Of a DNA stretch of 64,000 bases, positions 16,996 to 64,000 are shown piece after piece. Position numbers and translations under genes: made by a program. The DNA is from Pseudogymnoascus verrucosus (Eukaryota). Every line of letters starts with the position of its first letter. Position 1 is the first letter of the stretch. Below the pieces are notes generated by a model. The model did not search any database. It was given only the letters and a program-made list of their open reading frames with translations, and was not told where the DNA came from. Location of the stretch: NCBI GenBank assembly GCA_001662655.1, contig KV460222.1. One strand, 5' to 3'.

Positions 16996-17562
16996 AACCC
17001 TAAACATTAATCTACTAAATTCTAAGCTTATGTATGGCAGAGTAGACAGGATGCCTAATTCTTTTAAGTCTATAGTCATATGTAATAGTTTCTCTCTTGT
17101 TAGGGTATAAGTACTATTAAACGCTAGTAATGTATAGACCTTCGCTACCCTTCCCCCTTCTAGCTTCTACCTTCTTCATAAAACCAGCCAAAAACAAAGA
17201 GACAAGCAAGAATATAGATTAGTGGGTATTCGCTAGTGGGGTAATTCGTTAGCTTTAGTGCTTTTACTTGCATTGCCTCTTCTAGCTCTGAAATCTACAT
17301 ATAGGCCTAGAGTGCACGTAACCCTCTAAGCTGATACTAGAGCCTCCTTGCAACTAAATAAACCCGAAAATCGCAAAAGCAATTCACTAGTTCCAACCTA
17401 GAATATCATGCATTCGCTGCTATCTTAACTCGATTTATACTTGCAAGCATCGCCTCCTTCGTGCCTATCTCTAGCTTATATAGCTTTGCTCGTCTCCCCT
17501 ACCTCTCAACGCAACCAATGCCTAAGTTCTCTAGAAACTCACCCTGGATAGACCGACCTCGA

Positions 17563-45258: not shown

Positions 45259-45374
45259 GCTTTCGTGGCTCAGTTGGCTAGAGCGTTGGTCTCATATGTT
45301 GAATATGACGTTACTGAAATAAATAAACAGTCACGGTGATCCAAAGGTCGCAAGTTCGAGCCTTGCCGAGAGCA
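45259..45374 (+). tRNA. tRNA-Met(CAT), elongator type, with a 42-nt intron
   Basis: Acceptor GCTTTCG/CGAGAGC-A, D arm GCTC..GAGC, anticodon CAT at 45293-45295, intron 45297-45338 at the canonical 37/38 position, T arm GCAAG-TTCGAGC-CTTGC, T31:T39 mismatch typical of elongator Met, downstream T-run. Confidence 0.93.
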
Positions 45375-45463: not shown

Positions 45464-45528
45464 ACATACAACAGTGGGTATTCGCTGGTGGTCACCCACC
45501 CAACTACTAATCCACTGATCTCAAGCTT
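45464..45528 (-). rRNA. 5S rRNA gene, 3' half only (interrupted)
   Basis: Reverse complement reads AAGCTTGAGATCAGTGGATTAGTAGTTGGGTGGGTGACCACCAGCGAATACCCACTGTTGTATGT plus a T-run, the conserved 3' about 65 nt of Pezizomycotina 5S; homology stops abruptly at 45528. Confidence 0.9.
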
Positions 45529-45555
45529 TCAGTGGATTAATACTCAGGACGGTGC

Positions 45556-45849
45556 TGTAAGGCGGCCTCCTTACTCGGGTCAGTTACGGTCGTCACGTGG
45601 CGCCCTAGAGACTCGGGGCCGTTACGGTTCAATCGCGACTACGAGCCTTAGGCACATAGCGTAAGGAAGCCTTAGGCACACAGAGGGTTGAGTCGGAGGG
45701 GTTTCGGGTATTTAAAGAAAGGGGAACAGAGGGTTTCCCCTTCATCTTTTTTGTATCCTTCGTAGTAGACCTATAGGATTGTACCTACTCCTATCCGACT
45801 CGCACTCCCATATGCAACTTATCGTGATACGGTGCCCTGTGTCCTTACA
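45556..45849. mobile_element. Solo LTR (294 bp)
   Basis: Termini TGTAAGG...CCTTACA (7-bp inverted, TG..CA), internal direct repeat AGCCTTAGGCACA twice, TATA-like GTATTTAAAG; flanks GGTGC/TATAG do not form a TSD. Confidence 0.75.
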
Positions 45850-46960
45850 TATAGGGATAATGTAAAGATCTACGTAATCTACACTAGGGTTGTAAATAAG
45901 ATTAAAGGTAAGTTTAATCTATATTATACTTATTATCTTCTAATTGTACTAAGATCCTTAGATATACAAATAAGTTATAGGTTAGAAAAGCAATGCTATA
46001 TATAAGGAATACTATAGGTTAGGGCTTATTAAAGAAAATAGGAGAGGATAATAAAACTTTACTAAAACTAACTAGCAAGTTTCCTTTAATCTACTACCTT
46101 ATACTAGAACACAATTATATTACAAATGTATTATTAGTTACTAAAGATCTATAGAGTAAAGAAGGGTAGGCTGTTTTATAAGATCTATATAGTTTATATA
46201 TTAATAATAATTAAGTAGTATATTAACTAGATAAATAGCCTGTTAATAGAGTATGCCCTTATAATAATTATCTAACTATTATAGTAGAGTAAGCATAAGA
46301 TGTAATTCTAAGGTAATTAAAGCTAACTAATTTAGGCTAAGTCTTCTAATGTACTTAAAGCATATATATAATTATTACTAACATAAGCTATAAGATACCT
46401 AAAGTTAACAACCTAGCTTATACTCCTACTAGCTTTCGAACTAAAAGCTTCTATTTACTAAGTACTATTATACATATTATAAATGGAGTTATAGTAAAGA
46501 TAACTAGAATAACTATTATAAATAGTATCTTAAAAATCTAATAATAAGATATAGGCTTCTTACTTTTTGCTATATGCTTACTATTATAGGTTACTATCTA
46601 TACTATATAGGTAATAAGAGCCTTTCTCTATTATAAAGGATATAGTAATAGATAATAAAATCTATACTCCTTAATTATATTAATAAACACCTTAAGACTA
46701 GTATAAAAAAGAAATGTTTATATCCCTTATGTTACATACTACTTATAAACGCTTTAGACTCCTAAGCCTATTTTTAGAATGCTTATTATATTAAAGAACT
46801 ACGTTTAAACTATATAAGTAGGAAACGGAAGTGTAAAGATAATAAGGAAAATGAATAAGACATAAAGGGCAAGGCTTTAAACTATATAAGCAAAAAGGCA
46901 AAGAATGAGGACAAGAAGGTAGAGGGGGAAAATGTAGGACCTACAACAGTTATAAGATAA
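45850..46960 (+). pseudogene. RIP-degraded 3' half of a Starship captain (DUF3435 tyrosine recombinase)
   Basis: Very TpA-rich with no ORF. Reverting only T>C/A>G transitions gives, in order: YRDNVKIHAIRAGVANKI (45850-45903), intron donor at 45908, QVMGQKSDAVYEEYY (45971-46015), MPERDRIA...DLRSKEGQAVLQDLYSLC...VAYRP...GVCP (from 46101), FAEYCYTC..W...W.DHC.QHL, GYCPYCMGD (46589-46615), LLNHIDEHL and CPHPLC (46715-46732). Confidence 0.85.
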
Positions 46961-47880
46961 ATAATACTATTGTTGTTTTCAAATTGCGATTTAAACTGTG
47001 GCTTAAATTGCGGTTGCAGTTGCGGTTGCTAATTGTAGCTGACTTCTTGGACGAGAGTGGCTCTAAGAGCATTTCCGGTATTAGTCATAAGCACACAATT
47101 CCAGATTCGGCACTAAATACATTCCGCAGGTGTACCAAAAACTGTTAAGATCACGTGGCGAAGGGCGACAAATTGCGGTTGCCAATTGTGGCTGACGATG
47201 TTGTGAGGAGAGCCATTAACGATGTTGGCGTGGTGCAAACCGTCGTCGCTCTGAAACTAAGATTACGTCTCAGATGCGGATTCAACTGTGGCTCTAATCC
47301 CACGTCCGGTTGCCATCTATGCTGTGAGTGAGAGTGGTAATAAGTTGACGGAAATAATGGCTCACAATTTGAAAGAGCAGCAATCTGCTGGCCATCATCC
47401 GGTGATACCAGCTGTGGACCACACACCTCAACTTTATGCTGCAAAGTGCGACTCACACGTAAGTAAACCACTACGACCGCGTAAATGCTCTGTGGCACCG
47501 TTATCGTCCCTCGTCTTGAAAACCTAGATACACCTGACGTATCGCACCCAAGGCGGGGATACCAGTCGCTTTAATGCAGGCTTGGGGAGATGTTGCCGTT
47601 GGTCCGTCATAGAGCTCATTATTTCTTCAGCGGTTGATATTCTTCGATTCTTATTGTAAATGAAGTTCATATTGATGGTATTTGGGTACTTGAAACCCAA
47701 CGACCTCCAGCCATTATCCTCCACCAATTATCCTCCACCCAATTACCCTCCACCCAATTACCCTCCACCCAATTACCCTCCACCTACGCCTCACAACATA
47801 ATCAGCCACAGTTGGCAACCACAACTACAACTCAAGCCTCAGTTTGAATTGCAATTTGAGAACGACAATAGTTTATATTA
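46960..47880. repeat. Imperfect ~90-bp inverted repeats with further partial internal copies
   Basis: 46965-47043 (ACTATTGTTGTTTTCAAATTGCGATTTAAACTGTGGCTT...) matches the reverse complement of 47790-47875; a partial copy at 47170-47208 and a more diverged one near 47240-47325. Confidence 0.6.
47711..47784 (+). repeat. 15-bp tandem repeat (AATTACCCTCCACCC), about 5 copies
   Basis: Directly visible; would encode (NYPPP)n in ORF 47660-47899. Confidence 0.9.
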
Positions 47881-48447
47881 TTTATATTATGACATATGAT
47901 TCTAGTTGCAGGCAAACGTAGAACTGTCACCACTTCCTGTTTTACGATAGCCCCGGTGACTCCTTGGCTGGCTCGTCTTTTCACTTCCGTGTGATATTTC
48001 GATTGTATGAAATGCTATTTACATGGTAGTGATGTTACACTAATTTTGACACTAATTTGGTGCCTGAGACTTGCCCGCGCCGCAGCATCTCAAGCCCTGT
48101 AGCTAGGTTATGCAACCGCCATTAATCATTTTACTCGGGGGTGGTTTCAGCTTCTCTTCCGAGTGTCACGAGACCATTGCTATAGCAAGGCTTTATAGGC
48201 CAATACTTAAGCCGTTATGCCATATCAGTGATGATGGCTCTATCATATCATATATCTCTTCGAACAGTGGTCTAAAACCTTGCCTCATTTCTTAACACGT
48301 CTCTAGTTTAAGAGCTTCATTCTGAGACAGATCCACATAGATCAAAAGACATCTTGATATCATTGTGAGCATCACTCTACCGAGTTTAGTATCCGCAGCA
48401 TTAATGAGTATAATTCAAAAATTTGTCGGCTATATGAAAATTGGCGA

Positions 48448-50004
48448 TCATGGTAAGATGCATATCTCTGGACCCTTAGGAACCAAGTCAAACCACAGTC
48501 CTCTAAAGCCATTCTCCCGAGCTGATCTAATGAAATTCACAAAGGTGACAAATTTTGTCAAGTAGGCCACAGATATTCCAGGTCCAGGTATCATTTCAAG
48601 AATTTCGTCCCCGCATTCCCGGGTAACCTCTAGAATGGCTACAAGGAGGGGAAAACTGGTGTTTTGCATCGTAGTTTTGCCTTGCAGCTGTGTAGAGCAT
48701 TGCTTAAAGTCACTGACAATGGCATTTGCATATACCTCAGCAATCTCATCATTGACGCCAAAGGGGTTTTTTAGACGATGAATAACCAGTAGTGCTGCGA
48801 GGCGATACACCCGGGCCTGGGTGAGCATGATCAAAACCTCCGACGCGAAATAATTCTCTGCGAAGCCTGACGGGATGGTTGGTTCCCATGACCGGACTTT
48901 CTCCTCGATCCCTAAAAATATAGCCGGGTCCCCATATGCACTTGCCTCCCCATATGCACTTGCCGAGCCTGCCATACTAGCTGCGTTGCTTAAATCGCAA
49001 AGTTCGTAAAGAATAGGTAGAAAGGAAGAGCAAATCCCGACAAATCGATCAACCCGGTGCAGATCCGGGGCGAACCTGATTACTGGAATCTGTCTTTTGA
49101 CAAGACACTCAACCGTATCCATCAACACCGGCGTTGCTGTAATGGAATGAAGCCACTCCTCCCTGCAAAGCGCCGGGTACCATGGCTTCACACCAGTGAG
49201 GGAGTGTCGCAATATCATATGTGACCCCATACATGTTGTGAATATGTCAAAGGTTGCTAAGGATTGTCCCAAAAGAAGTATTCCAGCAGCAACATGAATA
49301 CTATTGATGTGTGTGGTACGGAGCTGTTCTAGCCCTGTGGCACCCCTCTTTACATAAACTTGGTCTACCATCGATTTGCGGTGGTGGGGTTCGCTCAACG
49401 CCCCCAAGATAGCTAAAAAGGTGTGCTCCAGGAGTAATGGCGAGGAGAGGTAGATGCTTGTCAAAGTTGAATGAAACTCGCGAACAAATGTAGGCCCGAT
49501 AACGAATTGCTTATTGGCCATATAGAACTCTTGGAGGTCTAACGCGCAACCCTGGAGTGACACGACTGAGGAATCGGCAAGACCCGCATATCGGCACAAC
49601 AAATTTGACACAGCGGAGTTGATAGTAGCTGGATCTTGCAGCCGTACATGACGACTGATGAAACTGGAGGCTGCTGCGCTGCCAGTGATTTGGGGCGCCT
49701 GTGGGGAATAATCCCACTTCAGCTCCTCAGACGCTGAATAGTTGTTGCGCCAAACCTGCTCCGTACAGCCATTTCCAAAGACTCGAAGAACTGGGCGACG
49801 ACCTGGGGCCAATTGGTGCCGTCTGGTTTCGCACTTCTCTTGTGCATGGCGGCATCGAAGACATGCTCGCGAGTTATCCTCGAAAACGCACTTCCCCTTG
49901 ACCACCCGGCAACGATCGCACGCTCGACTAGATGGCATCCGGCAATATCGGGTAAAAGTAGAAGAATAATACTTCGTCAACCCGGTCGCTGAGAGGAAGG
50001 CCAT
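48448..50004 (-). CDS. Zn2Cys6 transcription factor with a Fungal_trans_2-like C-terminal domain, intronless
   Basis: CDRCRVVKGKC...CLRC...C cluster; VDRFVGIC, LPILYELC and YRLAALLVIHRL motifs. Confidence 0.88.
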   Translation of the reverse strand: MAFLSATGLTKYYSSTFTRYCRMPSSRACDRCRVVKGKCVFEDNSRACLRCRHAQEKCETRRHQLAPGRRPVLRVFGNGCTEQVWRNNYSASEELKWDYSPQAPQITGSAAASSFISRHVRLQDPATINSAVSNLLCRYAGLADSSVVSLQGCALDLQEFYMANKQFVIGPTFVREFHSTLTSIYLSSPLLLEHTFLAILGALSEPHHRKSMVDQVYVKRGATGLEQLRTTHINSIHVAAGILLLGQSLATFDIFTTCMGSHMILRHSLTGVKPWYPALCREEWLHSITATPVLMDTVECLVKRQIPVIRFAPDLHRVDRFVGICSSFLPILYELCDLSNAASMAGSASAYGEASAYGDPAIFLGIEEKVRSWEPTIPSGFAENYFASEVLIMLTQARVYRLAALLVIHRLKNPFGVNDEIAEVYANAIVSDFKQCSTQLQGKTTMQNTSFPLLVAILEVTRECGDEILEMIPGPGISVAYLTKFVTFVNFIRSARENGFRGLWFDLVPKGPEICILP

Positions 50005-51136
50005 TCACTTTCTGCGTAGTGAGACCTCCATGGTAAGTCGAGTAGTTCGCGAAGCGACTTTCACCCAGAATCTAGATTGTGAAAGGCCTCACGTGCGCTA
50101 ATTCAGTGGCGGTATTCCATGCTCGAGATCAATCAACCAACCCCCCTAGCATTTTAGCGTAGTCCGAGGGTACTAGATACAATAGATGTTCCAAGTCGAT
50201 CAGATTACATTTACTGTTTATACAGCTTATGCATGTCCGTTAAATGTTCTGAAACTCCACTGTCTTACCAGACGGTAACAGATGACATGGTATAAGGTAA
50301 TCACAAACTTGCCTCAAGACACTTCCCCTCGTCGTAGCTTTCTGGTCCAGCCAGGATACCCTCAAGAATACATGGATATGGCGAGGAACAGAAGGATTAC
50401 GCGGCGTACGGGATGTGTCGCTTGATGTACATACGTACATCGCGAGCATGTGCACACCTGCCAAACAGACTTGGCAGGGTACAAGATGGGGAAATATACA
50501 CTAGCCATTTCGATATGAGGAACAGTTGCGCCAGGCCCCGGTTGCGGTCTGGGTGTTTAAACCATTCGGAGCCTAAGGTGTGCGCTATCGTCATAGGGTT
50601 TCCGGAGGTTTGTTTCCAAAAGAGTCCTAGCTTCCAATAGATCATTTTCAAGAGTTAAGTTCACAGCGTAGTTGCCACCCGCTGCCGTCCATCCTGACTC
50701 GATATATGCTCAATAATCTCAATTTGTCCGACTTCCAAGTCGGTAAGAATATTCTCCGAAAGACCCCCGGCCTTAGACTTCGGATGTTTGAGACAATATC
50801 TCATATCTTACCCCTATTGTTAGGAGTTACCTGGGGGGAGCAGCCCAAAACATCTTAAAACATTTTCATGCGTGTAGACATGGCTATGGCCCTTATTTTC
50901 AAATGTTGGATTATAATAGCTAGCCCCAGAGCCGTAGAGAACAGGACCGGCCATCATAAACCCCAAACGTCACCTAACTGATTAATAGCTTATCAAAAGC
51001 TTATTGATTGTAACACTTTGGCTTACCCTCGACGTAGGGCTCTTTAGCCGACTTATTTACTGCCTAGAATGTTTTCTATGTTTTCTAATGAATGTCTAAT
51101 AAACAGGTATACCTACAGAATGGCATAACTGCGTCA

Positions 51137-52211
51137 CTACTCAGTTTGAAGCACCTCCGACTGGCTATTCCGTATGCTTTCTTGGAGCCAACTTGGGCAG
51201 CTTTTGACCAAGGACGCGAGAGCATAGCCTGCCGGTAGGAAAACTTGCCCGCTCTGCCCTTTTACAATATGTGAAACAACTGCTTCCGCAACGGCGTCAG
51301 CCTCTATAGTCCGTGAATTCCACAAACTACTTTCAACCTGTTTTTGGATGAGTGGTGTGCGTACAAATGTTGGATGAATTATCCTAGAATATTATGAGCT
51401 TTGGGGAATTTCTCAATCAGCAGCCCAGTGTAACTTACGATGTACGAACTTTCCTTGCATCATACCTATGCCGAAGCTCCTGTGCCAGGCCTTCATGAAA
51501 ACTCAGAGCCGCGGCCTTTGTACAAGAGTATGAAACATTCGATGCAAGCGTCACAAAGCTCGCCATGCTTGCAACAGTGACTACATGGCCATGGTTTTGT
51601 TTGATCATGTGCGGAAGGAATTCACGCACTACCCAAAAATGAGCAATATTGTTGACATCAAAAGTGCGCCGAATTTCTTCATCTGTTTCGTCGAGTAGAG
51701 GTTTTGCGCTGCCAATACCTGCATTATTGATCAAAATGCTCGGGCAGCCCACATCCTCACTAATACGTCGTGCTGTACTGCGAATTGTCTCTGGGGATGT
51801 AATGTCGCACTTGTAGAAATGAACAAGAGTGGGCATGGCGACCTTTGGGGGCGTAATATCGAGTACGACCACTTTGATATTGCGTTCAGCAAATTTCCGT
51901 GCGATCTGTTCACCAATCCCACTGCAGCCGCCGGTAATTAAAACAACTTCTCTCCTCCAGTCCCACTTGTCCGAAGTCCAGTTGTTCAGAATCAACCTAG
52001 ACAGAGCTTTGCCGCAAATATATATGATTCCAGCGGTGCAGAGTGCTTGCAATCCCAGGCGGCTGTAGCGATTGGTTGATATGTGTCTGAGAAAGGGGTT
52101 CAGTACAAGCTTCTCATGTACTTTTGAACTAAGGATGTCGACTGACTGAAATATACGGGCCCTAATACAGAGTATGAGCCCCGGGCACGTAACCGACCAG
52201 AATTCTGCCAT
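51137..52211 (-). CDS. Membrane-anchored SDR (retinol dehydrogenase/17beta-HSD-like), 2 exons
   Basis: First ATG at 52211; TM segment, ITGGCSGIG, LINNAG, VASMAS, YSCTK; intron about 51438-51384. Confidence 0.87.
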
Positions 52212-52991
52212 ATCTGACGCTCTGTATGGTGGCAACTTGAAAAAAAATGATAAAGAGATTGTTTCAAACACCAAGTGAGCACATCTATTATATAGACAGA
52301 TCGCAGTTATTCTAACCTCGGTATTTGTTATTTTGCCTCGGTATCAAGAAACAATTTATTGATTCGAGTTATTCCACCTCAATGCTCCGATACCCCAGGA
52401 GGTGCAAAACTCCTAGGACACGCTAGGGTAATGGGGCGCCTGAGTTTTGCGCTGGCAACCTCTTAATTAATAATACATATCAATAATACATATGATCTTT
52501 AAGCCAACTTCTCAAAGTGGGAGTGGGTCACTTCTTACATGTCACGGAGCGCCGGACTTGACTGTATTGTAGTAATGCTATGCGGCCCAACGACCGCCGC
52601 GCTTGCATTTGGGGAGGTGCAACATGGTGCCGTCAGGGCTGAGCCGGCTAGGACTCTTTGGGTAAAAATCCTCCGGCAGTCTAACTTGTTGTGATACGAT
52701 GCACTCCAGGCTTCAGATAGTTTAGCAGATATACCTACCATGCCCTGGCTTAAATCGCCACTAGCGCCCTGCCTTGCCGCCCGGCTCCACGCACAACCGT
52801 GGGCCCACAAGACATTGTCATAGATGCGGCTTAAAGACAAAAGATATTTTGTGCGTACCAGGAGCCGAGGTAATAAGTGAATAGTTGACCGCGCGCTCCA
52901 AACTCATGTGCTCTGGAAAGGAAACGTACAAATTGCCGGCCTTTCCCAAAAACAGTATGGGGTGAAAGACCACAATATTTCAATACTGGAG

Positions 52992-53982
52992 ATGGCCGCC
53001 GCAGGGATTGAACGTCGTGTGGATATCACAATTGCTTCGTGCTCAGGGGTCTTTATGTGTGGATGGCTTTACTCGTCTCAACGGTTTACTGCATCGAACC
53101 CGGGACCAGCCATCGTCTTGGCCCACGGCCTGGGTGGAACGAAAGAGCTAAAGCTTGATGTGTATGCCGACAGTTTCAATCGGATGGGATACACATGTGT
53201 TGTCTTCGATTACCGTTGCAGTGGTGGATCTGATGGTCTGCCACGAGGTCTAATTGACTGGCATCAGCAGCAAGAGGACTGGAAATCTGCTATCGAGTAT
53301 ACCCGTCAGTTGGAGAACGTTGATTTGGAAAATGTCGGCCTTTTTGGAACATCTTTCAGTGGGGGCCATGTCATACAACTGGCCGCTATTGATAAGAAAC
53401 TGAAAGCAGCCATCTCTCAATGTCCCTTCACTTCTGGCTGGCAGAGTGCTCTTTGTACAGGAATTGCAGCCGCCACGAGGATTGCAGGGCTTGGTCTGCT
53501 AGATATTCTCTTTGGCTCAGACGAAAGGCCAATAACCATACCGCTGACCGGAAAGCCAGGTGAGAGTAAGTAAACCCTATTATACTTAGGAGAATAATAC
53601 TAAGGAGCTAAAATCTACGATAGCGGCTTTGATGAATGCTCCAGACGTACTCAGCACGTTTCCACCACTTATCCCTGAAGGTCATCCGTTTCAAGAAAGA
53701 GTCCCTGCTCGCCTAGCTTTAAAGCTTCCTTTCCTGAGACCAGGATCTTTTGCATCAGAGACTGAATGTCCAATCCTTTTTGCTATATGTGGCAAAGACT
53801 CAGTGGCACCCGCAGGCGCAACCTTGGCATACGCGAAAACAGCCTCCAAGGGAGTGATCAAGTGGTATGAAGACGTAGGCCATTTTGAAATTTACTATGG
53901 TCAGGCATTCCAACAAGCTATACAAGACTATAAGCAGTTCCTCCAAGAATATTTGCCAATCAAGCGCCAGGGAGAGGAATAA
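52992..53982 (+). CDS. Alpha/beta-hydrolase (acyltransferase/esterase type), 2 exons
   Basis: AHGLGG oxyanion motif, FDYR, nucleophile GTSFSGG, acid KDSVAP, GHFEIY; intron about 53562-53622. Confidence 0.88.
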
Positions 53983-54180
53983 TTGAACAGAGCATAACAT
54001 ACATGCATAGCGAATGCTACAACATAGCGAATGACACAAAATAGCGAATGAGACAAAATATCGCGACCACGCCACAAGAATTGCGATAAATCCACCACCA
54101 CAATAGAAATCAATTCAAACTACTTACTTACCAACGTGTCTATTACAATCTGACAGTGTCGACTCTCTGTCTTTGATACT

Positions 54181-54220
54181 GGTGGGTGACCACCAACGAA
54201 TACCTTCCGTTGTATGTTTT
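54181..54220 (+). rRNA. Second 5S rRNA relic (last ~36 nt plus T-run), non-functional
   Basis: GGTGGGTGACCACCAACGAATACCTTCCGTTGTATGTTTT matches the reverse complement of 45461-45500 at 36 of 40 positions. Confidence 0.8.
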
Positions 54221-54869
54221 GACTTTTATTATTATTTGTAGAAACAAAATTAGAGTTTTATGAGTGTGCTGTTATGTTAATGTGAGACGAAGAGCATAGA
54301 GCAGTGACGCCATGTACTATGTATTCAAACGGTATAACCTAATCTATTATCATAAGCTGCTCTCCCTTTTACTCGTGATATAGTGAATATCAGGGCCGTC
54401 GAAGCATGGAACGACTATTGGCAGACACCTCCGTTCTAGTTTTGGTATTTGCCAGGCTTCAACTCGCTTTAGCCGACCACCTGTAAGGTTATCGGTGCGG
54501 ACACGAAGATTAATAGTCTTTTTTGCTAGTGGTGCTAGGTCCTGTGAAACTGTAGAATCAGGCTCTTATAGAGGGACGAATCAATGTATGAGGGCATGCA
54601 CGCAGGTCATCGGTTAGAGCGACGAAGATTGGAATGGGAGGTCGAAAAACGAGGATATCAGAAGGCAAGACTGGTATACACTTACATCAACAAGGCATGC
54701 GTCTCCTTGAAGTGTGTACAGTCTTGGATTCTGAAGATAGGCATAGAACCGCATACTTTTGTAGTAGGATGATTGTCTATGCATCACTGGTCGTCACCAA
54801 GGTAGTCACAAACAGTGAGAAATTGGCAGTATCATGGAGTTACACCACGCAAACAAGTATCATGATGGG

Positions 54870-55499
54870 TCATAGTTTCTCTTTTGGTACTGATATCCAC
54901 ATCCCATCACATGTAGCAAACCTTACACCGTTCTCGTTCTTCACAGTGACATCTATAAAGACCTTTCTCCCCTCAATCCTATTCAACGTCGCCGTCACTA
55001 ACACAATGTGGGGAGTAGCCAAAGGCTTCTGAAAACGAACATTCATGCTCGCAGTGAACATCGCAATGCCGTGCAAGTTCATGACATTTGGCGGTGTTGT
55101 TACTTTTCGTGCCTCGACGTCTTTGTAAACTTCGTGGTTGACAAAAATCATACTACCCATGGCCTCGTCCATCAAAGCAGAAATGAGACCACCGTGAGCA
55201 GAACCATTAAAGCCATTGATTCCTGGGCGTAGGTCGAAGATTAGGGTTGAAGAATTGACCAAAAGCCGTAACGCTGACCCTGAGGGAGGAGATGATGTAG
55301 TCTTAGAGAAAGGATCCTGGTAAAATCCGACACAATTTGGTATTGCATCATCGTTTCTGAGGCTTTTCCGGAAGAATTGATCTTGTGTTGGGCAATACCC
55401 ATTCGCATCTTCTTGTAGTCGACATGTGGGTGTGAATGTAACAATGCCAGTTTTCTCTAAGATAGCGGCACACCACGGGATCGACTTGAAGTAATCCAT
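54870..55499 (-). CDS. Hotdog-fold (PaaI-like) thioesterase, intronless
   Basis: NGFNGSAHGGLISALMDEAMG and TASMNVRFQKP motifs. Confidence 0.88.
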   Translation of the reverse strand: MDYFKSIPWCAAILEKTGIVTFTPTCRLQEDANGYCPTQDQFFRKSLRNDDAIPNCVGFYQDPFSKTTSSPPSGSALRLLVNSSTLIFDLRPGINGFNGSAHGGLISALMDEAMGSMIFVNHEVYKDVEARKVTTPPNVMNLHGIAMFTASMNVRFQKPLATPHIVLVTATLNRIEGRKVFIDVTVKNENGVRFATCDGMWISVPKEKL

Positions 55500-55937
55500 T
55501 CGGCTGAATATTTGTGGCCCTGAAAGAATGCGCGATTATCGAGGTGTTTTGTTGATACCAAAATGAGATACTTTTGAACGATGGTGAACAATATATATTC
55601 TAAGATGACCTAGCACCTTGGCTAGGTGTGCCGCGGTACGCGGTTTCCCGATAGACATATGCATGTCGCGGACCATCTTTTTTTTGGGCCAACTGAGGCA
55701 GAGATCTGCGGCTCAATAAAATCTTCTCAGCCCACTCCGACAGGCCAAGTATGCGATGTAATTGTCTTCGATAGAGATCTGCGGCTCCATAAATCTGCTC
55801 TGGCGCACTGTGGTGGAAGCGCGCCCACTCCGACGGACGAAGTAGTCCCAACGCCAGCCTGCTTCTACCTTCTCAAGTGTCACGATCGAGCACGAGAGAC
55901 TTCAAAATTTCTCTATTGTCTATCAAGATTTCTTATC

Positions 55938-56634
55938 ATGGACAAGACCAATCTTCGTGAGGCGCGTCTGAGAGCTCGAAAATCTCTAGATAGAGCCGGT
56001 AAACTCGATTTCAAGCCTGTTTCTTCTGCAAAATGGGTAGATGTTGAGCGTAGCTGGACGGGGAAAATTTACGTCCGCATCAAACGACACTGTGCGCGAC
56101 TGCACCCCAGAGATGATCCGTTGGTGGTTTGAAAACCTTGTACGACAGACTACCTGGGATGGCATTGGGTTTAACGGTCCTGAGATCTCCTATCACCTGT
56201 GGCATCACCGCGATCATGTCTCAGTGGCTCCTCTTACCGGCAGTCACAACAAAGGTTTCGCGACCCACGAGAAGTCTCGAATTACAGAACAGTTCAACGA
56301 TCACCATAACAAAATCGAAGTGGATGTCTACACAGAACGCCTCGATGACGAAGAGTTTAATTTCTCAATCAAGAAATTCGGGTTTACCGCCGTCCATCTC
56401 AATCACTTTTACTCTGCTGAGGGTGATGGCTCTCGATGCTACGCTGAGAATGTAGTTGGTTTGGATGTCCCTCTCCTTGGGTGGCTTTTTAACTGGGTTA
56501 TTCTTCCCTTTATATATTCGAAAAGGACCGCAGAGCATTGGATTCGTCACAATGTGGAGGAGACAGGAAGGTCAGAATAAATTATTCCGGTGTTGTACAA
56601 TTACGACAAGAAACTTGCGCAGCGTGCGAAATAG
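55938..56634 (+). pseudogene. PhlG-like (2,4-diacetylphloroglucinol hydrolase-like) gene with a frameshift and a premature stop
   Basis: ATG at 55938; frame change at about 56082-56087 joins VRIK to DTVRDCTPEMIRWWFENL; YHLWHHRDH; HWIRHNVEETGRSE, then TAA at 56578-56580 reading through to IIPVLYNY...K-TAG at 56634. Confidence 0.65.
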
Positions 56635-57287
56635 GACTGGATTTTTATTATACTAGTTAACCCAATCTTTGGTGACGCTTCGTGCAGCAGGCCAGGATAA
56701 CCAGAAACGCGAAAAGAGGATATAGCCTCATGAATGTGCTCGGCAACGCCTAGCTCATAAGCTCGTGCGCAGCAGTTGAAGTGAAACAAAAAAAAAAAGA
56801 AGGCAACCTTTCAACATGTGAGAACAGGTCAACTGACGGGTCAGGACAATTATAATTTTCGAAGTTAACAGGTGCGGCGAGAGCGACCTTGGGATGCTTA
56901 GCACCCAATTCAGGACACGTCACGTTTACGGCTACACAGATTCTTCAAAAATGACGGCTCAAACTATTACCTTAGCTAAAGAAGCAAAGGCTCCTATTTC
57001 CCTATGCCTTAATGGTAAGAGGTGGAGTAACTGCTAGGCTCTGAAAGGGACGGATTTGACAATTATCAATTCCTGATGCTGATTTGCGTGGTAAACGGAT
57101 AATCCTAACTGAGCTAAGGGTGGAGTTGGTAGAGAAGCAGCGCTCCAATTTGCCAAATGGAGGGCTAAGATAGTTCTTGGGAGCCGCGATCCACCACCAC
57201 ATGAGCTGCATCCAGATGATGCAGTGCGAGAAATGAAGTCTGCAGCATTAGCTGCTGCTCATTAAAACACGACAGTTCAATGGTGGG

Positions 57288-59878
57288 CAGTGTTCGGCGG
57301 GTACCACTTGGGGTATATACCCGGAGCTTCGCGGGTAGAGTAGGTAGGTAGGTAGGATATCACGGGTAGGTATGGGTATATACCCGGGTATATGAGGCTC
57401 TGCTATAAAATTGCTATGCAGAAAAGTAGAATTGAGGTTAATAATAACTATGATAATAACGTTAGGTCGTGATATAATAATGTAATATACTGTTGCAACC
57501 CCTATTCCTCCCACTCATCGTCTCCATCGCCTTCGCTGTCGTCACCTTCTGGAAGTACACCCCAATCCCGTAGGCAGAGTAAATATCTTACAGTTGAAGG
57601 CGACAGCCGGTTCCGCTTCTTAGTAATTATATCGCTGCCATTACTAAATACCCGCTCTGATGCAGCAGATGTAGCTGGAATTGCAAGATAGTCTCTTGCA
57701 ATTTGCGCAACAATTGGATACATATACTGCTTTGATAACCAGTACTTTAGAATATCTGTCTGTTGGCCAGGCCGTAGCTCAAGTATCCACCGCTTCCACT
57801 CAGGTTCTTGAAATGAGATTCCTTCTGTAGCGTATAGATCATCGTCAGAATCAGTCTCATGGACTGCTGCATTAGCTAATTCTGTCTGCTGCTCGATTCT
57901 CTCAGTGTCAAGATGATATTGACGGGTCTTATACTGTGTAAAGACATCTTGAAAGTGAGCTCTTACTCGATTCCTTTTACTTGCCTCTCTACTACTTGGC
58001 CATAAGCTTGTAAAGACTTTAAGATTCATTCTTAGATCACAAATTGTAGCTACACTTAAGTGGCTATACTGCTGGTTTGCTAAAAGAGTATAATACTCAT
58101 TTAGCTTGTAAAGCGCTGCGTTGCATGCAATTCCAATTGTAGACTGCTCACCCACTTCCTTTAGCATATAATTAAGCTTATTAATCATTTTTAAATACTG
58201 TGGAATAGCGTAGTTAAGAGTAGGGTATGTGCTAGCTTGTAGCTTCTACAAAGGGCGTAAGAAGATAACGAAAAATAGCTCAAGCTCTTTAATCATTGAC
58301 CAGTCATTAGCATTAAGAGCAATATCTCTCATGCTAATATCCCACTGCTGCGACGCACAGATAGCTGTAATTGGCACTTGAAGCTTTATTACGGATTTAA
58401 GCATCTTATGTGTTGAATTCCAGCGGACTGGCATATCAAGTGATAATTGCTGTACTTTAAGGCCAGCTACCATTGTTTGCTTCTGTAGAGCGTCCTTCCA
58501 TAACCGGCGATTCCGAAACACATAGATATGTCTCCGAAGTTTAGCAAGTGTATTCATAACTTCTGTATGAGAATCAACAGTGCGTGGGATTCGTGCAGCA
58601 CCTAGCTCACACCTATATGTCTCCGACTCTGCTGAAGGGTCCGCTTTGATTGTCTTTAAAGCGTGTTGAACAGCAATATTAATAATATGTGCAATACAAC
58701 GTACATCGCCTTCTTTAACAGTAAAAGTCCACGGCTGTTGTATAGAAGTTGAATGATTGCGAGCTAAGAGCTCGTACTCAGCAAGCATAACAGTGTTAGC
58801 TGATGCATTATCTCGTGTACATGTAAAGATAGCATCAGTAATCCCCATATCATCTGTAACGGCATATAATTGGCTTGCAAGATATTCACCGCTGTGAATT
58901 GGCTCTTTCAGATGAATCACATCTAACAGATTTGACTTCTGCTGCCACTTGCTATTTATCTAATGTGCTGTTACTGCAGAGTATTCGGTGTAGTTGCGTG
59001 CAGACCATGAGTCGGTAGTCAAGCATATCCAGCCTCCATTTGCAATATGAGAATGGAGTTCTGCTTGTAACTGAGCACGGCATAGTGAGAACCGCCTTTA
59101 AAGGTCGCGATGTAGTGTTCTAGCAGATACTGACAAAGTAATAGGGCTTAAGAATTGAATAATTTGACGAAAAGATAGACTATCAACAAGGCGTAATGAC
59201 AGATTGTTTGATACTATAAATTGTAGCAGTAAATCTCTATACTTTGATGCATTGACTGGCTGCTTAGCCGTTGTCTTCTTTAGCTCAAAGAACGATGAGC
59301 TACTTGACGGACTTGATGCTGCTTGTGCCTAGTCGTTCTTTCTCATGCTAAATGAGATTTGCGGGTGCTTTTGGGTGTAGTGCTTCCATAAGTTACCAGT
59401 TGATTTATCTGAGAATACTAATGGCTGCGGTGAATAACCGCAGTCTGGCTGGCTACAGGTAACCCGAATAGTTGGTGGTGTAGTGTCCAATAGCGTACGC
59501 ATATATAGATTCTTAGCAAACAGCGGTGAAGAGCTTGGAGGAAGCATTGTACGAGGTGGCTGGAGATAGAGCGATGGAAGAAGAGTAGGTAAGGTTGGCT
59601 CATTAACCTCATCGAGGCCAATGTCGTCGAGGCCAATAGGCACATCTGATAATGAGGAGTCGCTCATTATATGTTATGGCATCTACATCACAAGCATATT
59701 ACGAGCACAATATGGTTATATTCATAAATTCTAATTACTTGGCAAAGCTTGGCAAATACCCGGGGTATATACCTACCTACTCGAAATACCCGGGTAGTTT
59801 TCTCATATAAAAGGGTAGGTATATACCCGGGTATATACCCGGATACACTGGGTATATACCTACCTGTGCCGAACACTG
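57288..59878 (-). mobile_element. Complete hAT-superfamily DNA transposon (2591 bp)
   Basis: 11-bp perfect TIRs CAGTGTTCGGC (57288-57298; reverse complement at 59868-59878); 8-bp TSD ATGGTGGG (57280-57287 and 59879-59886); subterminal GGGTATATACC and GGTAGGTA arrays at both ends. Confidence 0.96.
57502..59667 (-). pseudogene. hAT transposase, a single 721-codon frame with four nonsense codons
   Basis: BED-like finger (C..C...LWKHY..KH), TTDSW, TRDNASAN, RCIAHIINI, VRWNST and dimerisation motif PATSAASERVFS. The three track ORFs share one frame, separated by TAG/TAA stops. Confidence 0.93.
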
Positions 59879-59963
59879 ATGGTGGGAGTATGATATGAGC
59901 AGTCTGAAAAGTGTCGAGGGACCCATAATATGTAAGGCGGGAGTCCCGAATCCTGGGAGAGTT

Positions 59964-60480
59964 TCAAAGATGGGTTGGTTCTTGAATGTGAGCCAACAGA
60001 CCTCCGAGGATTATCTGTGATGGATGAAGAGTACGGAGAATGTGATCGAGCGCATTTACAAGCTGGCCAGGATATTTCAATTCCGGGGCAAGCGTGTATT
60101 CTAGGCAGGAGAAGTCAGATGCACCAACGGCGTGTGCACAGTCGAGAGCGAACGGCAATTGGCATTGGTGCTGATTGGATGGACATAGGCGCCTCCATAA
60201 AAGTAGAGAAGAAGTCTCGCCCTCGGACGTTCTGTAATACGGATATAGTGTAACGTCGCTCGGAGTCCATGGTTGCCATTGGTGATATCGACGGACCTGC
60301 AGGCAATACCTGCATGCTTGTAGAAAGCCGTAATGTTTTGTCTTGTGGGGAGAGCTATGGCGCAGCTTTGCTTGAAAGAAATCCAGGTAGCAGATCGCAT
60401 ATAGGCCAATGCAAGAATACTTGTAGTTGACCGACCAACAGATAGTCGTGGAATCATCTGGATCAAAAACGTAATTAAGC
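59964..60480 (-). pseudogene. Relic of an HSL-family (Say1-like) alpha/beta esterase
   Basis: LLYFYGGAYVHP in one frame and LEYTLAPELKYPGQL...IILGG in another; the expected DSAGG nucleophile is missing. Confidence 0.6.
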
Positions 60481-60779
60481 ATTGCAGGACTGTGTAATGT
60501 TATTTATATCATTAGACAGCCCTCTACGTGATAGTACAAATTCACTTTCTTCCCTTTGGAAAGCTGAAGCCTCTGATGGCTAGGCATCTTGCTCTAATTG
60601 AAGTTTAAGTTGATTTCAGGATTGGTATTGAAATTGAAATATCTGACAGTTGACGGAAACTTAGTGCTACTCGTACACGTACTTGCTTATTGTCGGCCAC
60701 AACTTATTCTTGGGCGAAACTTCCATTATTGGGGCTCGCTTGGCGCAGATATCTACCAAGTAGTACGTTCCACGCTCCA

Positions 60780-60862
60780 TCCGACTCGTCAACTCTTCGA
60801 CTCTCCGACTCTCCGACTCTCCAACTCTCCGACCTCCGACCTCCGACCTCCGACCTCCGACC
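60780..60862 (+). repeat. Short-period tandem repeat (CTCCGACT / CTCCGAC units, about 11 copies)
   Basis: Directly visible; 8-bp units grade into 7-bp units. Confidence 0.9.
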
Positions 60863-61567
60863 GCCTCGTCAAATTCCCCTAGCTTTCCGATGTTACTTTT
60901 TGGGTTATGAGGAGCTTGGCTTGGAGCTGTAGACAAATTGGCCTCGGCTTCGTTGCTCCATTGTAGTGCTTCAGAAGAGGAACATGTCCTTTTCGAGTAA
61001 CACATCAGGTTTGTGATCCTTTCCCTTCCCCTCAACCCCTCCGTACCCCTCCCCGGTCCCCCACAAGAACACATCTTACAGGTCTGGCAGCCGCAATGGG
61101 TATCTGTTGGCGTATTGCCCATAGATTTGTTTTGGTTATTATGGAATACCCACTCCATGCACCCCGCATCACAGTACAATTTCTTATTAAGGCAACAGTA
61201 GCCTCCCCAGGTTTTCTGTCACCTTACTTCTCCATCCTTCGTACAAACGACCACGTGCTCGCTCATTATACGCCCTGTCGACAAGAAGGCCCATAGATTC
61301 GTCGTATTCAAGCGGCGCTGTTGCATCTCCGGTCGCCACTGTCGCGTTCTATGTTCGCGAAGCTCAAAGGCTTAGGGATGCTGAGATAACACTCCTTTGC
61401 GATCGAATCTATAGCTTGAGGATCGCCTCTGTTGCGGTCGCGCATTCACCAATTTGACAGAGGCGCATCGCGAAGCACCGACCAGAGGGGACTGGCTTCA
61501 ACCTCTTTGCGGCGACAGGTGCGGAATCCTCTTTGTCTGTCTGCACCTCGCAGTCCGGATCGCCGAA

Positions 61568-63404
61568 ATGGTTTACGACGCAGCGGTAGATGCAGCCTTT
61601 CGGGGTAGCTGTTATATTCCCTTCCTCCAAGAGGAGCTATACGTCAATATTACAAATGGCTGTGAGTTTTGTCTGCTGCCAGCACTCGCTGGGTACTGCT
61701 AATAAGCCTTTCTAGATCTCCCTGGCCGAATATGTACAGAGGTCGCGCCAAACATTACATGTTGCTTGCCATGCCCCTTGACGGACTGGTTATACTCCGA
61801 TTCCTTCTATACAGTAACAAATGCGAGTAGTTGGCTAAATGTGGTGGGACTAGTGTGCACAGTGTTCCTGCTCGTTTCGTTTGCGATTCTGCCTGTTGAG
61901 AAGACGCATCGGCACTATCTGAGTATATGTCTTGTCATTGCTATTCTGATCATGCAGGTATGCAGTCTAGAGCCCCCAAATCTTCTGGTTGACAATGGAC
62001 TAATCGTCTGTTGTAGTTGGGATTTGTTATTCCCCTAGGAGCGAAACCTGCGCAATGCGCCAACAGCATTACGCCCCATGGTATGGAGAGTAGCATAACA
62101 TGCGCACTATCTGGTGCATTTCTTTTGGCCGGTGGTTGGTGCGGCATCATGTGGGTGTTTATGCGTGCCCTTGCGCTGCACTTGCAAATATGTTGGCAAG
62201 TTGTTATTGGAAGAGCCTGTAAGTTGAACCTCTGACTAGAACAAGGGTATAAATAGCTGACGTAGATGGCTCTTAGTTATGTGGGGTGCTTTAGCTGGAG
62301 GCTGGGGTGTTCCTGCTATTGCTCTTACTATTGCTATGGTATTCAGCGGAGTTTCTTTTCGCTTTGGAGGTATGCCTGACAAACTATGGTCCTCATCTGC
62401 CTATGCTAACCAAGTTTAGAAACATGCTATATTAACTATAGGAACAGCCTTGCGGATTTTTGGATTCCGCTTCTGACATTTAGTGGCTTAACTGTCATCA
62501 TCCAGTTTACTACGTTTGGATACTGCATAAAGGTCTATTGGGTCTCTCTTTCTGATAGCTGCAATACCACCAACAGCTCTGCGCTTCCGTCGTATTTGAA
62601 TGATGTCGTTTCCCTCACTCCACGACAAGCCTACCGCCGAATTCAACGAATTGTGGAACTTCAATGGAGGGGCATCGCAGTTGTCATCATCATCATAGTT
62701 GATGTCATGTTCTTTGCGGTTGTCTCGACAATGCACAATAACCAAATTAAGGCAGCAGATGTCTCGATGGTCACTGGTGAACCTGCTAAACTAGGAGAGC
62801 CACTAGACCCATCCGTGGATTGGCTTTTGTGCTTGGTGACTAACAAGGGCGACAAAGACCCTTGCTTAGATAAATCCGCCAAGCTGATTATGAATCAGGC
62901 CATAATTACCGCTGTACTTGTTCTTCTCTCTGTAAGTCTCCTTCTGTTGTTAGTAGGTGTGAGGTGTAGTGCTGACAATCCTAGTGCAACGGCATTTGGT
63001 TATTGCTTCTCATGTCTCGCGTCTCCATGTTCACGGGCTGGTACTACTTGGCTAAGCCAGAAGCCAAACCTAGTGTCGAGTTTATAAGTGCAGATTCTGC
63101 CAGAGCTTACAGTAAGGATCCTAGAACTTACGAGATGCTTGCCTCAAATGGCCGAGATGTGGACAACCCGTTGAGACCCGATCTTTCTGTAACAACCTTA
63201 ACTCCAGCCGTCATTTCTCTAACAGGGAGATCCGGGAGGCAAATGCCTGATTATTTCAGCTGCGAAGCCAAATATCAAAGTCCCACGCATTCATTTTCGT
63301 CACTGAGACCACCACCGGGCGGCAGAGATTGGAATGCTGCTGCAACACACGCACCGTCAGCGCACCGGGGCCACGTCGATCGGTTGAGCATTAACAAATG
63401 TTAG
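61568..63404 (+). CDS. G-protein-coupled receptor, GprM/MG00532-like (fungal class VII), 6 exons
   Basis: CYIPFLQEELY, GRIC...CCLPCPLTDW, LPVEKTHRHYLSICL, LHLQICWQV, SLADFWIP, LQWRGI; seven hydrophobic segments; GT-AG introns keep the frame. Confidence 0.85.
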
Positions 63405-64000
63405 GGTTCCAATAACAACACTGCCTTGTCTATAATTCACAAATGATCATAATGCTGGGATAGCACAACAGGTAGCCTTGTCCAATTGATTCCAGCCTCA
63501 CCACATGTTTCTCACATAGAGTATTTCCAGCTATCGACTTGCGCAATACCATCACTCGCTCAGCACATCTTCTTCTCTAAGTCTTCCACAATATCACAGG
63601 ACCATTTCAACTCCCTCATCAGACCTCACCGACTTCCTCAACAAGCTGTAGCAGATAACGGATCATCCTTCGCCATGTTATATTTCTGTGGTAGTAGTGG
63701 TTTACTTACGCGTGGTGGTGGCACTTTGCGGAAGAAAATTGAGGTGTATGGTCAACAGCTGGTATCACCGGGATGGTGACCAGCAAATTGCTGCTCTTTC
63801 CAAAATCGTAAGCCATTTATCTCTGCCGGCTTATTACCACTGTGAACACTCGCGATCAGGATTCGCGGCCCGCCAACTCAGTGACTGGCCGCGAATTCTG
63901 ATTAACACAGGCCCCTCAGTTCAAGGAGGGGCCGCGAATCCATGGATCCACCCAATATATGTAGTTCTGGCAGCGGATTGCGTACAACTGGGTGAACTCA

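Follow-up and report, generated by a model that had tools for sequence, protein, structure and literature searches.

Tyrosine recombinases recombine DNA at att sites (loxP, phage and ICE attP/attB), in which inverted arms surround a core that holds the crossover, and the spacer of such core sites is usually 6-8 bp.

Starships are giant transposons of fungi. Asymmetric terminal inverted repeats (TIRs) are known from them, according to the available text of PMC12257634, and the role of Starship direct repeats (DRs) and TIRs is described as not demonstrated in the accessible part of PMC11162782. In the tables available from PMC12153272, Osiris (Enterprise family, Aspergillus fumigatus) occupies the same place in the 5S rRNA gene as the elements reported here, with DRs from aagcc to aagccacacg and the TIR gaacgcggtcaataccc (Table S3). 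The A. nidulans element SP-2605-48 likewise lies in 5S at this place, as given in the same part of PMC11162782. Voyager of Macrophomina phaseolina is also a 5S-specific Starship with DR and TIR, but the accessible text of PMC9156397 places it at another 5S site, 20 bp from the 5' start, with another DR. For Hephaestus of Paecilomyces variotii, the available portion of 10.64898/2026.09.21.753150 shows a circular intermediate with crossover inside the DR. Here we describe a 5S junction from Pseudogymnoascus verrucosus that, judged from sequence, is probably an attL-type junction in which the 5S half would be a degenerate half-site for the captain.

The junction palindrome and its exact match

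The window is a stretch of 64,000 nucleotides (G000:C17:248001-312000) that contains a palindrome where a 5S gene gives way to element DNA (Table 1). Its left arm, TAATCCACTGA (45508-45518), and its right arm, TCAGTGGATTA (45529-45539), lie on either side of a 10-bp spacer and pair at 11 of 11 positions, or at 14 of 16 when extended over 45503-45544, exactly as the earlier note had reported. That note had also taken the left arm to be 5S sequence; the arm is indeed 5S-derived, but it is not native, since it carries a copy-specific C>T at 45516. The equivalent base is C in 30 of 30 intact 5S genes read and in 40 of 42 genome-wide pattern matches, and native 5S matches the element arm at 10 of 11 and 13 of 16 positions. 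The exact 11/11 pairing, which occurs at 1 of 30 junctions, is therefore due to this single change, and no other junction has an exact run longer than 2 bp beside the spacer. T occupies this position in 5 of 30 junctions irrespective of the arm, as expected of a RIP-like change. Fold-back conversion finds no support as the origin of the T, because four other junctions carry it without a matching arm.

Taken alone, the palindrome is weak evidence. In 60 Markov simulations, exact pairs of at least 11 bp with a spacer of at most 30 are expected 0.15 times per window; the window holds five, four of which lie at the end of a hAT transposon. The weight of the observation thus rests on position and family.

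Table 1. Features at and around the 5S junction, in window positions.
Feature	Position	Strand	Basis
Intron-containing tRNA gene, anticodon reads CAT, host side	45259..45374	+	Rfam RF00005, 52 bits
3' half of 5S rRNA gene (nt 55-119)	45464..45528	-	98.5% to intact 5S
5S-derived arm-like 16-mer, 5S nt 80-65, C>T at 45516	45503..45518	+	Best of 208 5S 16-mers against 86 element arms
10-bp spacer with core/direct repeat C/AAGC(TT) at 45522-45528, crossover site	45519..45528	+	Junction tallies
Captain-side 16-bp TIR, arm type A (TCA variant)	45529..45544	+	15/16 to type A far end
Start of conserved subterminal sequence, interrupted by LTR	45545..45555	+	Sister loci run on without LTR
Solo LTR-like repeat, TG...CA, no target duplication	45556..45850	+	About 40 genome copies; ends
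DUF3435 captain, 3' part with internal deletion and RIP decay, and the sequence behind it	45850..47168	+	Alignments, RIP indices
Probable cargo: Fungal_trans_2 factor, SDR, alpha/beta hydrolase, thioesterase, hAT transposon	47169..64000		Pfam

We considered whether the arm is a one-off fold-back repair scar at a deletion breakpoint, which the singular exactness of this junction and the deletion with an LTR 11 bp beyond the arm would fit. The identical arm recurs, however, at L062 and, in another assembly, at L201, both with the native C in 5S, and contigs of four other public runs follow the window to 45555 and then continue as LTR-free element. The earlier note had named homologous elements lacking the arm as the finding that would point to a scar, and sister elements carry it. 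A scar origin of the arm is refuted, and we give it practically no weight; only the single C>T is private to the window copy.

The window holds a dead Starship copy

The target was defined by intact 5S paralogs, and Rfam matches 5S 43 times in this genome. On the host side, the tRNA gene lies about 90 bp from the 5S 3' end (ARAGORN found no tRNA at 45259..45374), and an A-rich tract ahead of the 5S half on the plus strand reads as a T-rich terminator. Flank contigs listed from the four other public runs, which were inspected for an empty site, end at the tRNA, with none bridging.

On the element side, the junction is followed by 27 bp of element sequence and then by a 295-bp LTR-like repeat. 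By comparison with the sister loci L061 and L062, this solo LTR replaces about 1.5 kb of element, including the 5' part of the captain. The LTR was rejected as the element that disrupted the 5S gene because sisters without it break at the same base. At L017/L038 (C19:149122-149680), an intact 5S gene has a copy of the same LTR some 140 bp upstream, in the relative orientation seen in the window.

Behind the LTR, the DNA is AT-rich and RIP-marked, and 45850..47168 is 73-91% identical at the nucleotide level to the captain regions of L061 and L062, with a tblastn match to the DUF3435 protein P0003 at 45953-46253. The window lacks a whole captain ORF, and none of the 30 ORFs scanned contains DUF3435; what it retains is a RIP-degraded remnant. 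The sequence from 47169 onward, with a GC content mostly of 0.40-0.51, is probably Starship cargo. The far end of this element was not found in the window or in C17 312,001-488,938, which runs to the contig end. The window's Starship copy is dead.

Further 5S and transposon sequences lie elsewhere in the window. At 17024-17083, a 5S 5' half that bears RIP marks and a far-end arm resembling type A forms the right junction of another element; lying upstream, it was rejected as the partner of the junction described here. Within the presumed cargo, a 37-bp scrap of 5S 3' sequence (54181-54217, plus strand) is 89% identical to the resident type and may be a foreign 5S or another family's junction. 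The hAT transposon at 57280-59880 has a broken transposase and palindrome-rich ends.

Element ends share a breakpoint in the 5S gene

Using a subterminal motif and a search blind to the target, we retrieved 45 left (captain-side) ends and read them by eye. The 5S 3' half adjoins 35 of them and a partial one adjoins another; 7 adjoin the far end of another element through the core C/AAGC, one meets an assembly gap and one meets unrelated DNA. Among the matches listed (100 of 141 pattern matches), 38 left and 48 right ends are in strict register, 7 being the same head-to-tail joins. These counts leave out ends with indels or with more than one mismatch in the core (left ends such as L147, L168, L171, L178, L180, L183, L184, L188 and L189; right ends such as L082, L087, L102, L105, L122, L124, L126, L128, L133 and L134), and ends fetched later were read but kept out of the statistics.

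One breakpoint is common to 30 5S-flanked left and 41 5S-flanked right ends among the matches listed. With the first A of AAGC numbered +1, left junctions consist of 5S up to +4, and their +5/+6 are element-derived (AA in most of types B-F). Right junctions have element-derived -5..-2 and take +5/+6 from 5S; only -1..+4 are common to all arm types. This composition places the crossover within C/AAGC, inside the spacer, as had been predicted. Part of the spacer was also expected as a direct repeat at the far end, and the far ends of the family indeed carry CAAGC, or CAAGCTT in the window's arm type (5-7 bp family-wide).

A target-blind search for right ends gave 66 matches. By eye, 9 of 16 newly fetched right ends adjoin the 5S 5' half, 2 are head-to-tail joins, 1 stands at a contig end and 4 run into other DNA. 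Far-end motif matches in the genome thus stand at 66 and captain-end matches at 45, and many paired elements span just 3-15 kb, which indicates that short derivatives are abundant.

Head-to-tail joins of a far end and a captain end through the core were found at L141, L145, L169, L172 (two), L175, L187, L216 and L222. These nine are circle-type junctions kept in the chromosome, and different arm types are united in 4 of the 7 in strict register. Each circle-type join reads as a 16-bp TIR, 5 bp, AAGC, 2 bp and a second 16-bp TIR, which makes an 11-bp spacer.

Related ends occur beyond this assembly. A metagenome scan gave 7 loci, and the 2 with left ends, L201 and L202, have them at the same 5S site and with the same 5S arm sequence; the four other public runs contain element ends of the same kinds, and pattern scans of viral contigs gave no matches. 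At some junctions (L201:1-120, L202:1-120, L145, L169 and L171), the core differs from 5S at -1/+1, frequently through a G at +1; L182 (left) and L131 (right), which lie in the second 5S type, carry the G that this type has at +4. Such deviations may mark a heteroduplex overlap.

The elements carry a DUF3435 captain as the first gene near the 5' end, facing inward, as seen in the window's remnant and at sister loci. PF11917 matches lie inside the left ends L061, L062 and L078, captains begin about 0.36-0.4 kb inside sister left ends, and L201 and L202, contigs of another assembly, hold near-whole captains. A sister captain exon finds its best protein match, at 59% identity, in a hypothetical protein of Pseudogymnoascus, and DUF3435 is carried by 9 of 11 matches of the next protein search. 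R, HxxR and Y motifs are visible in the captain alignment, and we take these to be of the tyrosine-recombinase type. Captains behind type A and types B-F arms are roughly 45-60% identical per exon.

The arm is a terminal inverted repeat

Left-end positions +7..+22 are the reverse complement of right-end positions -21..-6, which makes the arms 16 bp long. They fall into six types, B and C include exact 16/16 left-right matches, and the arms of these asymmetric TIRs covary. In 13 pairs formed by proximity, the left arm matches its own far arm at a mean of 12.0 of 16 positions, against 9.46 when permuted (p=0.00065); all 13 pairs were kept, although proximity may join the wrong ends (L118, for one, probably runs to L029). 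To 5S, these left arms match at about 9.2 of 16 (9.15). The arm is thus first of all the element's own 16-bp TIR. The earlier note had described it as an arm present in both the 5S gene and the element end; the likeness to 5S extends across the family, but the arm is foremost a TIR.

When the sequence that follows the arm was placed in a tree of 36 rows, to which the window did not contribute, roughly three lineages emerged: A (90/87), C (80/71) and B/D/E/F (99/96 when one long row is dropped). The 86 arms are not independent because they fall into these lineages.

The 5S segment resembles the element arms

Against the 86 arms, the 5S 16-mer at -20..-5 ranks first of 208 5S windows, with a score of 8.77 compared with 3.95+-1.24. 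By arm type, its match is 10.7 for A (rank 1), 8.5 for B (rank 3), 7.4 for C (rank 6), 8.6 for D (rank 2), 6.4 for E (rank 12) and 6.5 for F (rank 13), each of 208; type A was chosen as the 5S-like type, which makes its statistics partly circular. When type A is withheld from the matrix, the 16-mer still ranks 4 of 208, and 7 of the 9 columns with a consensus frequency of at least 0.68 equal 5S. The proposed resemblance between the 5S segment and the element arms therefore holds family-wide, although the columns conserved across arm types are mostly outer ones and not the 11 bp that had been named.

We weighed chance as the source of this likeness, with the palindrome arising from a TIR beside unrelated target DNA. 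There are few independent lineages, AT-rich periodic sequence yields a second peak at offset +4 (6.8-7.0/16), and types E and F reach only the 12th and 13th ranks, all of which would suit such a coincidence. Against it, the best of the 208 windows is the very one that adjoins the core, all six arm types place that window in their top 13, and type A reaches 13/16. We regard a chance likeness as improbable.

Far ends in which 5S sequence replaces the arm (L134; L007, L015 and L020) speak for a captain half-site in 5S. Register speaks against it: compared with the far arm of the element, the 5S arm is shifted one base toward the core, and offset 0 scores 3.1-3.2/16. The other 5S half has no likeness to the arms, scoring below zero at 7 of 7 offsets with a best of -13 (all-type matrix).

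A different account treats the arm as a plain TIR whose sole partner is the far end. In that case the resemblance to 5S would be historical, and 5S would be chosen by the core and something else, such as Pol III tethering. Target DNA could have been copied into the far end, by imprecise excision or gene conversion, and spread from there to the other TIR. Such capture would fit the far end of L134, which is joined straight to 5S from -20, the insertion of types B-F at the same base despite poorly matching arms, the mixed arm types in 4 of 7 head-to-tail joins, and the location of the segment within the 5S internal control region. A copied arm should, however, retain the 5S spacing, whereas type A far arms lie one base further out; the likeness that persists without type A and the agreement of the best-conserved columns with 5S also weigh against it, as do the outer columns that Osiris arms share in the tables available. 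We consider this account rather unlikely, and it and a half-site role for 5S are not mutually exclusive.

How far the likeness explains 5S specificity depends on the lineage. Rough estimates from a 234-kb background put chance sites for arm matrix and core in the genome at about 13 for type A, 294 for all types and about 4,400 for types B-F. The proposed sequence-level explanation is plausible for the window's type A lineage but insufficient for the other types: arms of types B-F match 5S at 6.4-8.6 of 16 and insert at the same base, so arm and core offer no general explanation of specificity.

The earlier note had also expected arms to covary with 5S type. The second 5S type in the genome has the same arm segment, so covariation within the genome is not possible, and the comparison was made between hosts. 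The resident 5S differs from that of A. fumigatus at 4 mirror columns. Most type A arms agree with their own 5S at 3-4 of these and with A. fumigatus 5S at 0, and three Osiris arms in the available tables agree with A. fumigatus at 1-2 and with this genome's 5S at 0. Type A and Osiris thus behave as expected, but most arms of types B-F fit the A. fumigatus pattern as well or better, or tie, and the two hosts together give weak support for covariation.

Possible 5S-restoring derivatives

Three intact 5S genes (L007, C6:549833; L015, C17:224807; L020, C22:445197) have differing 5' flanks. At each, the terminator flank is joined, 65-80 bp from the gene, to a far-end motif and a degenerate arm that all three have in common. 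These may be derivatives that bring along the 5S 3' half and so restore the gene when they insert; gene conversion is an alternative. L003, and L029 with the flank of L062, look like two further 5S-restoring units. Shared downstream flanks also accompany dispersed 5S genes or halves (L005, L006, L010, L028, L067 and L171; L016, L163 and L170; L118 and L143), hinting that 5S 3' halves travel with their flank, perhaps on these elements.

Discussion

We favor the following course of events for the window's junction. After excision to a circle, a step modeled on Hephaestus and applied here to the 5S-inserting family, the two TIRs would synapse with the 5S half-site. The Starship would have integrated into the 5S gene by a tyrosine-recombinase crossover at C/AAGC, with a staggered cut expected around +1. 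For this, the 5S gene would offer the same core and, on its 3'-half side, an imperfect copy of the TIR that is shifted one base toward the core. Probably the captain binds the 5S 16-mer and treats it as a weak half-site, recognizing above all the outer A-x-T-A-x-T-A columns together with the C and G common to most arm types. Integration would leave the 5S half-site facing the element TIR, which would create the palindrome, and a later RIP-like C>T would have made it exact. In lineages other than type A, half-site and core probably need help from the rest of the 5S gene or from bound factors. Tethering by Pol III factors cannot be told apart from sequence reading here; our literature search found no paper that links a Starship with TFIIIA.

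More tentatively, the family may follow a phage- or ICE-like attP x attB scheme, a picture we think possible but doubtful as a whole. In it, the captain would use the TIR as its half-site and find the matching one in the 5S internal control region, arms would drift toward the host 5S, lineages could differ in which way the element body is turned with respect to its ends, and certain derivatives would carry the 5S 3' half, so that insertion would rebuild the gene as prophages do with tRNA genes.

An element end that imperfectly mirrors its target suggests a testable way of target recognition by these elements. The genome provides a natural mutant series of 38 left and 48 right ends (among the matches listed), 7 circle-type joins and several arm lineages, all at one base of 5S, and this series shows which bases to mutate and which register to test. 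A rule relating arm and target would aid the prediction of insertion sites and the design of site-specific starmid vectors.

In the literature searched, we met no description of a target-TIR mirror; tables S11-S15 of PMC11162782 and subscription reviews may bear on it, and the visible part of the PMC11162782 supplement lacks four arm motifs. The available text of PMC10104507 and 10.64898/2026.09.21.753150 likewise holds no such mirror for Hephaestus. As described there, Hephaestus has a DUF3435 captain and a DR carried by the element end, like the present family, and a low-specificity TTAC(N7)A target, unlike it.

Conventional att sites resemble this system in that the target is an imperfect copy and integration occurs in a conserved RNA gene. 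Inverted arms with the crossover inside the spacer are present here too. The loxP-like geometry that had been suggested does not apply, however: the spacer is 10 bp in attL and 11 bp in the circle-type join, instead of 6-8 bp identical between partners, and only 5-7 bp, off-centre, are shared. The target also has a single arm-like half instead of two, one base out of register.

Osiris, among the closest known systems, has its 5S site in common with this family and a related TIR. Judged by the empty site in Table S4 of PMC12153272, the 10-bp DR of Osiris h3 (aagccacacg) maps to -4..+6, the same 5S positions as the window's 10-bp spacer; its TIR, as tabulated, starts at +7 beside the 5S 3' half and has the outer AATAC in common with this family. 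Relative to these published rows, the present family differs in its DR of 5-7 bp and in presenting dozens of ends, many in 3-15 kb derivatives, and at least three arm lineages in one genome. It also appears reversed: the DR/down and TIR/down rows, on which this comparison is based, place the non-captain end of Osiris and SP-2605-48 beside the 5S 3' half, whereas here the captain end adjoins it. The kind of element and the 5S site are thus known, and the att-like symmetry is real but was overstated. New relative to these systems are the family-level anatomy, the one-sided mirror of the target, the apparent reversed orientation and the possible 5S-restoring derivatives.
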